A stretch of 11,965 nt of DNA from a virus (Duplodnaviria > Heunggongvirae > Uroviricota > Caudoviricetes). Below, in pieces: positions 1 through 11,965 of the stretch (its first letter is position 1; the number at the start of each line of letters is the position of its first letter). A model generated the notes under the pieces. The model was given only the letters and a program-made list of their open reading frames with translations, was not told where the DNA came from and did not search any database. Location: the IMG/VR virus record IMGVR_UViG_2778261184_000010. One strand, 5' to 3'. The position numbers and the translations under genes are program-made.

Positions 1-191
1 TCATACGCGTAAAACAGCCAGCGCTGGCGCGATTTAGCCCCGACATAGCCCCACTGTTCGTCCATTTCCGCGCAGACAATCACATCACTGCCCGGTTGTA
101 TGCGCGAGGTTACCGACTGCGGCCTGAGTTTTTTAAGTGACGTAAAACCGTGTTGAGGCCAACGCCCATAATGCGGGCAGTTGCCCGGCAT
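1..191 (-). CDS. insB: IS1 InsB transposase, N-terminal part (truncated by window edge)
   Basis: ATG at 189-191 on the minus strand; the downstream frame reads like the IS1 InsB N-terminus (MPGN...[14 protein letters not shown]...). It sits in the expected -1 frame overlap with the end of insA. Not in the ORF track because it has no stop inside the window. Confidence 0.85.
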
Positions 192-385
192 CCAACGCCA
201 TTCATGGCCATATCAATGATTTTCTGGTGCGTACCGGGTTGAGAAGCGGTGTAAGTGAACTGCAGTTGCCATGTTTTACGGCAGTGAGAGCAGAGATAGC
301 GCTGATGTCCGGCAGTGCTTTTGCCGTTACGCACCACGCCTTCAGTAGCGGAGCAGGAAGGACAGCTGATAGAAACAGAAGCCAC
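110..385 (-). CDS. insA: IS1 InsA (transposition regulator, zinc-finger/HTH)
   Basis: 91-aa [43 protein letters not shown]...[10 protein letters not shown] with the CxxC...CxxC motif; matches my recollection of IS1 InsA and sits at the expected IS1 coordinates 56-331 relative to the IRL at 440. Confidence 0.95.
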
Positions 386-440
386 TGGAGCACCTCAAAA
401 ACACCATCATACACTAAATCAGTAAGTTGGCAGCATCACC

Positions 441-485
441 TTTGTAGCGATACATATTATATATATATCATTCTCAGGTGCGTAC
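441..485 (+). promoter_or_regulatory. Candidate promoter/5' leader of the GGDEF gene in the 45-bp spacer between IS1 IRL and the start codon
   Basis: TA-rich tract 451-470 (tacatattatatatatatca) gives several -10-like hexamers; possible -35-like TTGGCA (427-432, inside the IS1 end) or TTGTAG (442-447). Shine-Dalgarno AGGTG at 476-480, 5 nt before ATG 486. No single confident -35/-10 pair. Confidence 0.25.
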
Positions 486-1817
486 ATGATTATCAACCAG
501 GTACCTATAAAAATAAAAATCTTCATCTTTTTATTTTCATGCATCTCTATTATATTTTTATTACTGCATGAAAATAATGGAATATACATAACACAAACAA
601 CACAAATAAGTTATAGTGTTTTCATTATTGGGCTTTTTTTCATAAACCTGATGATTTTTATTTTTCTATTGCTTTACTATGTTTCTAATCAGAGACAAAG
701 TTATCTCTTAATTCTTTCATTCGCGTTTTTGAGCAACACGTATTATTTATTAGAAGTGGCTATTATTTCTTTATCTCCGTTAGGTAACGATTTATCTACA
801 ATCTATCAGAAATCAAATGATATCGCAATATATTATCTATTCCGTCAGTTCAGCTTTATATCTATAATCTTTCTGGCTGTTTATTCCACCAATGTTAAAA
901 ATAAAAGTGTTTTAGAAGATAAAAGAAATATAATAATTGTTGTTTTGTCAATATTAATTCTTTTTATTACTCCGTTTGTAGCAAAAAATCTAAGCAGTGA
1001 CAATATAAAATATAGTCTTAATATTATACAATACTCGCTGAATCGTCATTTGCCGACGTGGAATATCGTGTACACCAAAATAATATCAGTATTTTGGCTT
1101 GTATTACTTATCAGCTCATGCATCAGCATACGTAATTACTCAAAAATATGGTTGTGTATAATACTTATTAGTATAGTGTCAGTATGCAATAATCTAATTT
1201 TATTGTATTTTATTGATAAATCCCATCCTGCATGGTACATGACAAAATTTCTTGAATTGATATCAATGATTTATATCATTTCAACACTCATGTATTATGT
1301 TTTCAGGAAATTAAATCATGCTAATCATATGGCAATTCATGATCCACTAACGAATACATACAATAGAAGATACTTTATTGACTCATTGAAGAATATATCA
1401 AAACACCATGATTTCTCAGTAATAATGTTAGATATTGACAGTTTCAAAAGCATCAATGACAAATGGGGGCATCATATGGGTGATCAAGTCATAGTAATGG
1501 TTACCAGAATAATAAAAAAATCCATCAGGAAAGAGGATATATTAGGGCGCTTAGGCGGTGAGGAGTTCGGTATTATCATTAAAGGTAATACTCAAAAGCT
1601 CTTGCTATCAATTGCAGAGCGAATCAGAAAAAACATTGAAGAGCAATGCTCGGAAAAATTATTATCGCATGGACCTGAGAAAATAACTGTCAGTATTGGT
1701 TGCTTTACTTCAAAAGAGAATAATCTCAGCCCATCTGAAATGTTAGTCAATGCCGATAAAGCGTTATATCAAGCCAAAAGAACCGGAAAAAACAAGGTGA
1801 TAATTCACTCAAAATAA
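486..1817 (+). CDS. Membrane-anchored diguanylate cyclase: N-terminal ~8-TM domain plus C-terminal GGDEF domain
   Basis: 443-aa ORF with a good RBS. Residues ~1-275 contain about 8 hydrophobic helices. The C-terminus carries GGDEF hallmarks: DPLTNTYNRRYF, LDIDSFKSINDKWGH, active-site GGEEF, and an RxxD I-site (RKED) five residues upstream of GGEEF. The gene is markedly AT-rich by eye compared with the neighbouring tail genes. Confidence 0.9.
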   Translation: MIINQVPIKIKIFIFLFSCISIIFLLLHENNGIYITQTTQISYSVFIIGLFFINLMIFIFLLLYYVSNQRQSYLLILSFAFLSNTYYLLEVAIISLSPLGNDLSTIYQKSNDIAIYYLFRQFSFISIIFLAVYSTNVKNKSVLEDKRNIIIVVLSILILFITPFVAKNLSSDNIKYSLNIIQYSLNRHLPTWNIVYTKIISVFWLVLLISSCISIRNYSKIWLCIILISIVSVCNNLILLYFIDKSHPAWYMTKFLELISMIYIISTLMYYVFRKLNHANHMAIHDPLTNTYNRRYFIDSLKNISKHHDFSVIMLDIDSFKSINDKWGHHMGDQVIVMVTRIIKKSIRKEDILGRLGGEEFGIIIKGNTQKLLLSIAERIRKNIEEQCSEKLLSHGPEKITVSIGCFTSKENNLSPSEMLVNADKALYQAKRTGKNKVIIHSK

Positions 1818-1844
1818 ACACCTTTTTAAAATACAGCCCCAATA

Positions 1845-1881
1845 AACTGCAGAATATTATCCCATATAATATCCTGCAGTT
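1845..1881. terminator. Palindromic stem-loop between convergent GGDEF and tfa genes (candidate bidirectional terminator)
   Basis: aaCTGCAGaatattat / cccat loop / ataatatcCTGCAGtt: 8 bp + 1 mismatch + 7 bp stem, 5-nt loop. Lies 28 nt after the GGDEF stop and 10 nt after the tfa stop. Flanking U-tracts are weak on both strands, so terminator function is uncertain. Confidence 0.4.
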
Positions 1882-10774: not shown

Positions 10775-11415
10775 TTGTCTGTATACCTCTCTCGTTTGCT
10801 CAGTTGTTCAGGAATATGGTGCAACAGCTCGCCGTCGCCGCAGTAAATGGCGGCATGATTCGGCACCGATGAACCAAAACAGCACAGCAGCACATCGCCC
10901 GGCTGCGCCGCTGACAACGGCACCTGATACAGCCCTGTGGCCTCCAGATTATCCAGATAGAGATTCTGACCGTGACGCCACCAGTCATCCCCGCGATGAA
11001 AATCCGGCATCTCAATTCCCGCCAGATGGTAAGCATCCCGGAACAGCGTGTAACAGTCCGTCACCCCGTGCTCAAAGCGCCGCCCGGTGAGATGCGGCAC
11101 ACAGCGGAATTTATGAATCGCCCCCCGGCAGACCAGCCACCACGGCAAATCACTCTGCACCTGCAGCCGCCGGTCGGCCTCACTCAGCCAGGGCAGACCA
11201 CCGGGGTGACTGTGGACCAGTGCCACAATCTCACCCTGCATCTCTGCCCGCAGCCAGTCCTCCGGCGACATCCGGAAATACTCCTCCGGCTCACCGGAGA
11301 TATTCACGCAGGGAAAATATCTTTCTCCCTCCGGCGTTTTCACCACGAAGCCGCACGACTCCGCTGGCGCACATCGGCGGGCGTGCGCCAGAATCGCTGA
11401 TTCTGTCTCTGTCAT
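10672..11415 (-). CDS. K: Tail tip assembly protein K (lambda gpK family; MPN/JAMM plus NlpC/P60-like domains)
   Basis: 247-aa ORF. JAMM motif HSHPGGLPWLSEAD (HxHx7Sx2D) and a downstream Cys/His pair (GVTDCYTLF ... NHAAIY) consistent with NlpC/P60. ATG at 11413-11415 lies 5 nt after the stop of the L remnant. Confidence 0.88.
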   Translation of the reverse strand: MTETESAILAHARRCAPAESCGFVVKTPEGERYFPCVNISGEPEEYFRMSPEDWLRAEMQGEIVALVHSHPGGLPWLSEADRRLQVQSDLPWWLVCRGAIHKFRCVPHLTGRRFEHGVTDCYTLFRDAYHLAGIEMPDFHRGDDWWRHGQNLYLDNLEATGLYQVPLSAAQPGDVLLCCFGSSVPNHAAIYCGDGELLHHIPEQLSKRERYTDKWQRRTHSLWRHRAWHASAFTGIYNDLAAASTFV

Positions 11416-11420
11416 GGGAT

Positions 11421-11492
11421 TTACTGCGAAAGTTTGTTAATGGAAAGGAAGCTGCCAAAGTTGCCGACATTATTGCGAAACTTACAGCCACT
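11421..11492 (-). pseudogene. L: 3' remnant of tail tip gene L (last 23 codons plus stop), truncated by IS1 insertion
   Basis: The minus-strand frame is open from the IS1 boundary (11492) to TAA at 11421-11423 and encodes SGCKFRNNVGNFGSFLSINKLSQ*. It is in the position of lambda L, immediately upstream of K, and resembles the lambda L C-terminus as I recall it. No start codon; the body of the gene is replaced by IS1. Confidence 0.7.
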
Positions 11493-11547
11493 GGTAATGC
11501 TGCCAACTTACTGATTTAGTGTATGATGGTGATTTTAAGGTGCTTGC

Positions 11548-11823
11548 GTGGCTTCCATTTCCATCAGATGTCCTTCCTGCTCCGCTACTGAAGGCGTAGT
11601 GCGTAACGGCAAAAGCACTGCCGGACATCAGCGCTATCTCTGCTCTCATTGCCGTAAAACATGGCAACTGCAGTTCACTTACACCGCTTCTCAACCCGGT
11701 ACGCACCAGAAAATCATTGATATGGCCATGAATGGCGTTGGATGCCGGGCAACCGCCCGCATTATGGGCGTTGGCCTCAACACGATTTTCCGCCATTTAA
11801 AAAACTCAGGCCGCAGTCGGTAA
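11548..11823 (+). CDS. insA: IS1 InsA (variant)
   Basis: 91-aa [43 protein letters not shown]...[14 protein letters not shown] at IS1 coordinates 56-331 relative to the IRL at 11493. Confidence 0.95.
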
Positions 11824-11965
11824 CCTCGCGCATACAGCCGGGCAGTGACGTCATCGTCTGCGCGGAAATGGACGAACAGTGGGGATACGTCGGGGCTAAA
11901 TCGCGCCAGCGCTGGCTGTTTTACGCGTATGACAGGCTCCGGAAGACGGTTGTTGCGCACGTATT
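11742..11965 (+). CDS. insB: IS1 InsB transposase, N-terminal part (truncated by window edge), variant
   Basis: ATG at 11742 gives [73 protein letters not shown]..., i.e. InsB with a few substitutions relative to the K-12 form I recall. The frame is open to the window end. Confidence 0.85.

Follow-up and report, generated by a model that had tools for sequence, protein, structure and literature searches.

Two different IS1 variants bound an 11-kb prophage segment carrying dgcX in a draft Escherichia coli contig

Inverted copies of IS1 flank the heat-stable enterotoxin gene of ETEC in Tn1681 and the aerobactin region of pColV-K30, and both of these units have been shown to transpose or to occur in several contexts. 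Transposition of IS1-flanked units is said to drop steeply with length, as Chandler, Clerget and Galas reportedly found in 1982. A different outcome of paired IS1 copies is seen in the closed genome of E. coli TUM2820 (CP135688), in which one IS1 lies in the leader of dgcX with its IRL towards the gene and a second, inverted IS1 lies downstream of it; a 9-bp duplication, CGTTATTTG, is split between the two copies, demonstrating the inversion of a segment of about 2.9 kb that places dgcX in reverse relative to ybhB-bio. Among the diguanylate cyclase genes of E. coli, dgcX is reported to have by far the highest expression, and the ETEC strain H10407 is named among its carriers (Richter et al. 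2014, PMC4287979). In H10407, it occupies a b-region position in a lambdoid prophage at attB, 595 bp inside attR.

The locus analyzed here (the window, meaning the whole stretch of DNA, 11,965 bp) is the entire draft contig NLVY01000090.1 (GCA_002511845.1), a complete short-read contig from an E. coli draft genome close to ETEC H10407. No publication surfaced in a literature search on the accession or the sequencing run. The features of the window, in which L001 denotes the H10407 locus, are as follows.

1-440, minus strand: left IS1, partial (IS1 positions 1-440), with its IRL end at 440 (repeat search; 100% identity to L010 701-1140)
110-385, minus strand: insA of the left IS1, 91 aa, intact (Pfam PF03811 and PF12759)
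128-134, minus strand: A6C programmed -1 frameshift motif of the left IS1, with the insB' frame open from there to position 1
418-440, minus strand: IRL of the left IS1, GGTGATGCTGCCAACTTACTGAT (read in the sequence)
441-449: 9 bp abutting the left IRL, TTTGTAGCG, equal to H10407 L001 12001-12009; under simple insertion, these would be the inner half of the target duplication
486-1817, plus strand: dgcX, MASE4-GGDEF diguanylate cyclase, 443 aa (Pfam)
1891-2475, minus strand: tail fibre assembly protein, tfa (Pfam Caudo_TAP; H10407 annotation)
2475-5810, minus strand: side tail fibre, stf, 1111 aa (Pfam)
5875-6474, minus strand: lom, Ail/Lom outer-membrane protein (Pfam Ail_Lom, E = 1e-121)
6545-10042, minus strand: tail tip attachment protein J (six GpJ Pfam domains; annotation)
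10103-10675, minus strand: tail assembly protein I, 190 aa as called (Pfam Lambda_tail_I; gene calls)
10672-11415, minus strand: tail tip assembly protein K, JAB plus NlpC/P60, C40 peptidase (Pfam; annotation)
11421-11492, minus strand: what is left of minor tail gene L, its 3'-terminal 72 nt out of 699
11484-11492: 9 bp abutting the right IRL, ACAGCCACT; the expected inner copy of the right IS1 target duplication
11493-11965, plus strand: right IS1, partial (IS1 positions 1-473), with its IRL end at 11493
11548-11823, plus strand: insA of the right IS1, 91 aa, intact (Pfam PF03811 and PF12759; A6C motif at 11799-11805)

A repeat search of the window yields one inverted repeat pair, with arms of 440 nt at 1-440 and 11493-11932 that are 95% complementary and 11,052 nt apart, a match far above chance; the right arm runs beyond it to 11965, which is IS1 position 473. 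Each arm corresponds to the IS1 family in its IRL, insA, A6C frameshift motif and start of insB', and differs from a family element in nothing of kind, only in that the contig ends leave positions 1-440 and 1-473, the IRL-proximal 57-62% of each copy. The IRL stands at the inner end of both arms (GGTGATGCTGCC... reading leftwards from 440 and GGTAATGCTGCC... reading from 11493, where the right IRL covers 11493-11515 on the plus strand), both element ends begin GGTRATG, and IRR lies outside the window. In both arms, InsA comprises Zn_ribbon_InsA and HTH_Tnp_IS1 domains (Pfam), the A6C motif falls at IS1 position 307, and the insB' frame stays open to the contig end, with the DDE part beyond the contig. 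These results agree with the initial annotation, which described inverted, non-identical IS1 copies bracketing about 11 kb with their IRL ends inward at 440 and 11493 (11,052 bp in fact lie between them) and which quoted the terminal strings of the two copies exactly. Its view of the copies as different isoforms is upheld by pairwise alignment, with 23 mismatches in 440 nt (25 in 768 between the full variants), as is its remark that InsA differs at several residues, there being four substitutions (V4I, S7R, V80I and L81F).

About 4,960 of the 5,426 complete E. coli genomes contain IS1. Each arm can be matched to a particular resident copy. The left variant is 100% identical to the H10407 IS1 adjoining fliZ and the right variant to the H10407 IS1 between mdaB and qseC; these two chromosomal copies are separate, 768 bp long and annotated as intact, and each has its own 9-bp duplication.

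Judged from its sequence, the bracketed 11,052-bp segment belongs to a lambdoid prophage integrated at lambda attB, of which it forms the 11 kb nearest attR. It is 99.9% identical to ETEC H10407 and differs from the IS1-free loci L003 and L004 by one mismatch and no gaps; its tail gene order, L-K-I-J-lom-stf-tfa followed by dgcX (Pfam), is collinear with H10407 and L003. In the IS1-free relatives, the segment is continued by ybhB-bioA at one end and by genes L and M and the tape measure at the other, and in H10407 and L003 attR (POB') and then ybhB lie beyond dgcX, attR itself falling outside the window. The window copy matches the H10407 prophage in gene content, gene order and DgcX protein (the exact protein is in GCA_000210475.1); it differs in bearing the two IS1 insertions and in lacking 63 bp of stf in frame, a deletion that the IS1-free relatives share. 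The right IS1 interrupts the 699-nt, 232-codon gene L at nt 627, behind codon 209, and the prophage can presumably no longer build tails. The window records a defective prophage of the H10407 type, with tail gene L broken and dgcX cut off from its likely promoter. Other relatives (L018 and L031) exhibit IS1-associated decay of the same prophage.

Both ends of the window fall inside IS1, at IS1 positions 440 (left) and 473 (right), because the assembler stopped inside each copy, and for this reason the copies are partial; a de Bruijn assembler would halt there since the genome has further IS1 copies. The left arm ends 77 nt beyond the copy-specific variant position 363 (440 = 363 + 77) and the right arm 77 nt beyond the copy-specific variant position 396 (473 = 396 + 77), a spacing that we read as the mark of an assembly break at k=77; the two coincidences together would have a chance probability of roughly 0.003. 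Both inner junctions are reproduced by an independent k=31 Logan assembly (L007, equal to window 413-11522). The window is a clear case of IS elements bounding a short-read contig in a manner that can be mistaken for a designed bracket.

The arrangement very probably arose when two different resident IS1 variants inserted independently and recently into the dgcX prophage, the window being the whole contig and its ends assembly stops. Independence follows from the copies being different variants, each a 100% match to a different resident H10407 IS1; together with the collinearity of the IS1-free relatives, this bears out the earlier preference for two insertions over a single duplication. One resident variant (left) would have transposed into the dgcX leader, 45 bp before the ATG, and a second, different one (right) into tail gene L after codon 209, whereupon the assembler would have stopped within each IS1 to yield the contig. 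Under simple insertion, the outer junctions are predicted to read GAAATTATCGTTATTTGTAGCG abutting GGTAATGACTCCAACTTATTG on the left and CAATAAGTTGGAGTCATTACC abutting ACAGCCACTCAGGCATTTGCTGC on the right. Two IS1 insertions bounding a slice of prophage are an ordinary finding. The inverted pair formally constitutes an invertible segment and a unit resembling a composite transposon, with neither behavior evidenced.

Compatible with this origin, and bearing on the present state of the locus, is a subsequent rearrangement by IS1, in which either the 11-kb segment flipped with respect to ybhB-bio or a deletion adjoining IS1 took away the remainder of L and of the prophage, so that the native outer flanks would be gone; we regard this as unlikely. 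The copies are inverted, and their perfect homology is enough for recombination (95% over 440 nt, with a 266-bp perfect run common to the full variants). Inversion between them, also raised in the initial annotation, is plausible because the related genome TUM2820 shows an IS1-mediated inversion of dgcX: its leader IS1 lies 5 bp from the site used in the window, likewise with IRL towards dgcX and with a second inverted IS1 downstream. The TUM2820 copies, however, are identical and of the IS1B type, whereas those of the window differ, and its inversion is demonstrated in a closed genome, whereas a short-read contig between inverted repeats, such as the window, looks identical in either orientation. 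As to deletion, we predicted 16 proteins in which truncated L reads into IRR (allowing for 8-, 9- or 10-bp duplications, for complete or contig-cut forms, and for two L alleles), and none of the 16 is on record in a collection of 15 billion proteins. Their absence would fit a subsequent deletion or rearrangement on the far side of the right IS1, a reading that the IS1-associated decay of the same prophage in L018 and L031 also favors, or simply a gene that went unrecorded; such negative look-ups can have trivial causes (a gene left uncalled, a contig cut elsewhere, or an SNP), and the source genome offers no direct evidence of rearrangement.

The left IS1 sits 45 bp upstream of the dgcX ATG (H10407 insertion point 12000/12001). 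A consensus scan places the best sigma-70-like site 5' of dgcX in H10407 at L001 11945-11973 (TTGACA-17-TAGTAT), upstream of the insertion point, such that IS1 lies downstream of the best candidate promoter; the same type of scan found no plus-strand promoter-like site between IS1 and dgcX in the window, and no mapped dgcX promoter was found in the literature searched. With the gene parted from its best candidate promoter, dgcX expression is probably lowered or rewired by IS1. A hybrid outward promoter at the IRL was considered, with TTGGCA at 427-432, but it has no acceptable -10 at 16-18 nt; for this reason, and given the result of the plus-strand scan, we reject promoter creation as a likely effect.

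IS1 has entered the dgcX leader four times independently (-17, -45, -50 and -168 relative to the ATG), each time with IRL towards dgcX, making the insertions recurrent and biased in orientation. That this recurrence reflects selected silencing or rewiring of dgcX, with the second IS1 rendering the cassette invertible (as in TUM2820) or in principle mobile, seems to us improbable. The recurrence is nonetheless the only thread with some biological interest, and if IS1 does change dgcX expression, it would bear on strain-to-strain c-di-GMP levels and biofilm behavior.

It is very improbable that IS1, dgcX, the tail module and IS1 together form an active composite transposon of the Tn1681 or aerobactin-island type that moved as a unit, for example to a plasmid. 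The formal architecture does fit, with an inverted pair of apparently intact IS1 variants around a cargo that, as in Tn1681 and the aerobactin region, includes a virulence- or biofilm-associated gene; moreover, the contig contains neither attR nor ybhB, so the location of the unit is not proven. Unlike those systems, however, the window unit is a singleton whose outer ends are unseen, and as cargo it has an arbitrary prophage slice cut in the middle of gene L, as random insertion would produce. None of the 5,426 complete E. coli genomes contains the right junction, and the ORF that spans it is present on a single contig, the source contig, in the whole gene catalogue; left-like junctions occur in 3 of the 5,426, all at different insertion sites. 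The dgcX part of the segment matches no PLSDB plasmid and no sequenced phage record, the PLSDB matches to the segment beginning only at tfa, and exact look-ups of K and DgcX returned only ordinary attB contexts among the longest contigs. Across the genomes, catalogue, plasmids and phages searched, the IS-cargo-IS unit was not found in more than one genomic context, and a unit of about 12.6 kb would in any case move rarely if the reported dependence on length holds. The initial suggestion that the pair could mobilize dgcX and lom as a composite therefore finds no support in these searches.

Least credible of all is that the IS1 ends are an assembly artefact, a repeat wrongly appended to a locus of which one end or both have no IS1. 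The contig does end at break points of the graph, and assemblers can append repeat edges to contigs, but the independent assembler crosses both junctions and extends 28 and 30 nt into IS1, the proximity of ten variant sites to each junction (76 nt at most) means that single k-mers phase them with the unique flank, each arm is unmixed and 100% identical to one natural variant, and on both sides the prophage sequence ends precisely at the IS1 terminus.

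The window holds a single large inverted repeat, recovered by repeat search, with arms at 1-440 and 11493-11932 that are 440 nt long, 95% complementary and separated by 11,052 nt; the right arm runs on to the window end, which corresponds to IS1 position 473. The two arms are copies of IS1: each encodes an intact InsA of 91 aa with two IS1-specific Pfam domains, has the A6C motif for frameshifting at IS1 position 307 and keeps the insB' frame open up to the sequence end, and the inner end of each is the left terminal inverted repeat (IRL). The initial annotation had described an inverted, non-identical IS1 pair, and this description holds: the terminal strings it quoted are exact, the arms mismatch at 23 of 440 positions, and their InsA proteins differ at four residues (V4I, S7R, V80I and L81F). 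Gene calling on the assembly also reported a 104-aa ORF at 11482-11796 (minus strand), antisense to insA and running from the IRL into the remnant of gene L; this fusion ORF is almost certainly spurious but serves as a junction-specific marker.

Searching for exact matches to the side tail fibre protein identified the window as the complete 11,965-bp contig NLVY01000090.1 of draft assembly GCA_002511845.1, in reverse complement and identical base for base. The window ends are thus assembly break points and, because the contig ends inside both IS1 copies, the outer IS1 halves, the target-site duplications (TSDs) and the present neighbours lie outside the sequence. In IS1 coordinates, the left arm breaks off at 440 (363 + 77) and the right arm at 473 (396 + 77), where 363 and 396 are sites that differ between the two copies; we infer that a k=77 de Bruijn graph branched where the genome's other IS1 copies become indistinguishable (the chance probability of two such 77-nt coincidences is ~0.003). 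An independent Logan assembly (run SRR3987519, k=31) yields the same segment, flanked by 28 and 30 nt of IS1, as a contig equal to window positions 413-11522. This contig spans both inner junctions, which are therefore real, and implies that each IRL type has one or more further contexts in that genome.

Between the two copies lie the following features, assigned from Pfam domains and from how RefSeq annotates the best match.

Features of the prophage segment between the IS1 copies
486-1817, plus strand, MASE4-GGDEF diguanylate cyclase (dgcX)
1891-2475, minus strand, tfa
2475-5810, minus strand, side tail fibre (stf)
5875-6474, minus strand, lom
6545-10042, minus strand, J
10103-10675, minus strand, I
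10672-11415, minus strand, K
11421-11492, minus strand, last 72 nt of gene L

Segment 441-11492 matches enterotoxigenic Escherichia coli (ETEC) H10407 at 99.9% identity; there the counterpart, without IS1, sits at the lambda attB site, flanked by ybhB-bioA beyond the dgcX side and by L, M and the tape measure gene beyond the other; the cyclase protein is identical in the two. Going outward from the left insertion point, an att core arranged as POB' (attR) is reached after 595 bp, which places dgcX within the prophage, in the b-region position. H10407 is a reported carrier of dgcX at attB, and dgcX is described as the most highly expressed diguanylate cyclase gene of E. coli and as always adjoining lambdoid prophage DNA (Richter et al. 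2014, PMC4287979). The 11,052 bp also align without gaps, and with a single mismatch, to two IS1-free assemblies, L003 (GCA_053702615.1) and L004. Relative to H10407 (locus L001, 16579-16641), stf has a 63-bp in-frame deletion at window 5007-5018, in a repetitive stretch with direct-repeat families D1-D3 (4681-5379); the deletion is common to the IS1-free L003 to L005 and is thus older than the IS1 insertions.

The left arm is 100% identical to a full-length chromosomal IS1 of H10407 next to fliZ, and the right arm to a different full-length copy between mdaB and qseC; both are 768 bp, annotated intact and bounded by their own 9-bp duplication. Compared over their whole 768 bp, the two variants show 25 differences, none of them beyond position 502. 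Copy divergence, the residence of both variants in the lineage and the near-identical IS1-free relatives together show that two transpositions into the prophage took place, independently and recently, bearing out the earlier suggestion of separate insertions as opposed to one duplication. The feature is real but ordinary, namely two resident IS1 in a known dgcX-carrying prophage that appear in the data as the repeats bounding a draft contig; features of this kind are known, and decay of this prophage family through IS1 seems common.

Beyond two simple insertions, the pair had been proposed to be inversion-prone or composite-transposon-like. Inversion is the more plausible of the two, the full IS1 variants sharing a 266-bp perfect run. 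A contig bounded by inverted repeats reads alike in either orientation. In the closed genome of TUM2820 (CP135688, locus L011), an IS1 is inserted 5 bp from the window's left insertion site, and its duplication (9 bp, CGTTATTTG) is divided between two IS1 copies in inverted orientation; no duplication borders the other two flanks, so a further rearrangement occurred there. Within L011 13313-17743, a ~2.9-kb dgcX segment between these inverted IS1B copies is reversed relative to ybhB-bio. For the window, a simple right insertion predicts that the 5' part of L reads through the duplication into the right inverted repeat (IRR), giving a predictable truncated protein. Sixteen forms were derived (duplications of 8, 9 or 10 bp; two L alleles; complete, cut at 77 nt, or cut 8-11 codons into the IRR), and none occurs in a collection of 15 billion proteins. 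This hints weakly that something beyond the right IS1 is no longer native, but the missing proteins have trivial alternative explanations, and we consider a later deletion or inversion unlikely.

Formally, the architecture matches an IS1 composite element whose copies are inverted. Such elements are defined in part by turning up, as a unit, in several contexts, and this was not found here: the right junction occurs in 0 of 5,426 complete E. coli genomes, the ORF across it is on one contig only in the whole gene catalogue, and PLSDB plasmids match from tfa onward only, none matching dgcX. Sequenced lambdoid phages share K to tfa at ~96% and do not share dgcX. The cargo ends in mid tail gene, as expected of a random hit, and mobilisation of dgcX and lom together is unsupported. 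The dgcX 5' region has 2 of its 707 matching places on RefSeq records labelled as plasmids, though PLSDB gave no dgcX match.

The right IS1 interrupts L after codon 209 of 232. Lambda tail assembly needs L, and the prophage would therefore be expected to have lost the capacity to make a tail tip. The left IS1 adjoins TTTGTAGCG and lies 45 bp ahead of the ATG of dgcX. By consensus scan, the best sigma-70-like site upstream of dgcX in H10407 is a near-consensus TTGACA-17-TAGTAT (L001 11945-11973), 73-101 bp upstream of the ATG and upstream of the left insertion point, and the same scan finds no plus-strand promoter-like site between IS1 and dgcX in the window. The left IS1 has thus probably separated dgcX from this site, a candidate promoter for the very high expression reported in PMC4287979. 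An outward promoter at the IRL TTGGCA was rejected, having no usable -10 at the right spacing.

Four independent IS1 insertions, that of the window included, lie upstream of dgcX, every IRL towards the gene; in three of the four the insertion point is on the dgcX side of the best candidate promoter.

IS1 insertions upstream of dgcX (distance from the ATG; TSD or flank)
EC05, 17 bp, TSD CATTCTCAG
Window, 45 bp, flank TTTGTAGCG, inner side only
TUM2820, 50 bp, TSD CGTTATTTG, split by inversion
YD786, 168 bp, TSD AGCCTTGCC
Positions: window 441-485; base after each IS1, 14081 in loci L011 (TUM2820), L012 and L013

Of the 5,426 complete genomes, 699 have the dgcX 5' region, and 678 have it without interruption. 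Three events in ~170 bp over ~700 genomes exceed the ~0.24 expected under a uniform model, a rough estimate that assumes ~10 IS1 copies per 5 Mb and draws on genomes that are not independent. IS1 prefers AT-rich intergenic DNA, and the shared orientation has a chance of 1 in 8; for these reasons the excess, which may reflect a hot spot or selection acting on how dgcX is expressed, is a lead and not a result. Elsewhere in the family, CP100936 (locus L031, 8061-10458) has an AraC-type gene just past tfa that is bracketed by two inverted IS1 copies, and CM130020 (locus L018, 2936-3633) carries IS1 in the tape-measure region.
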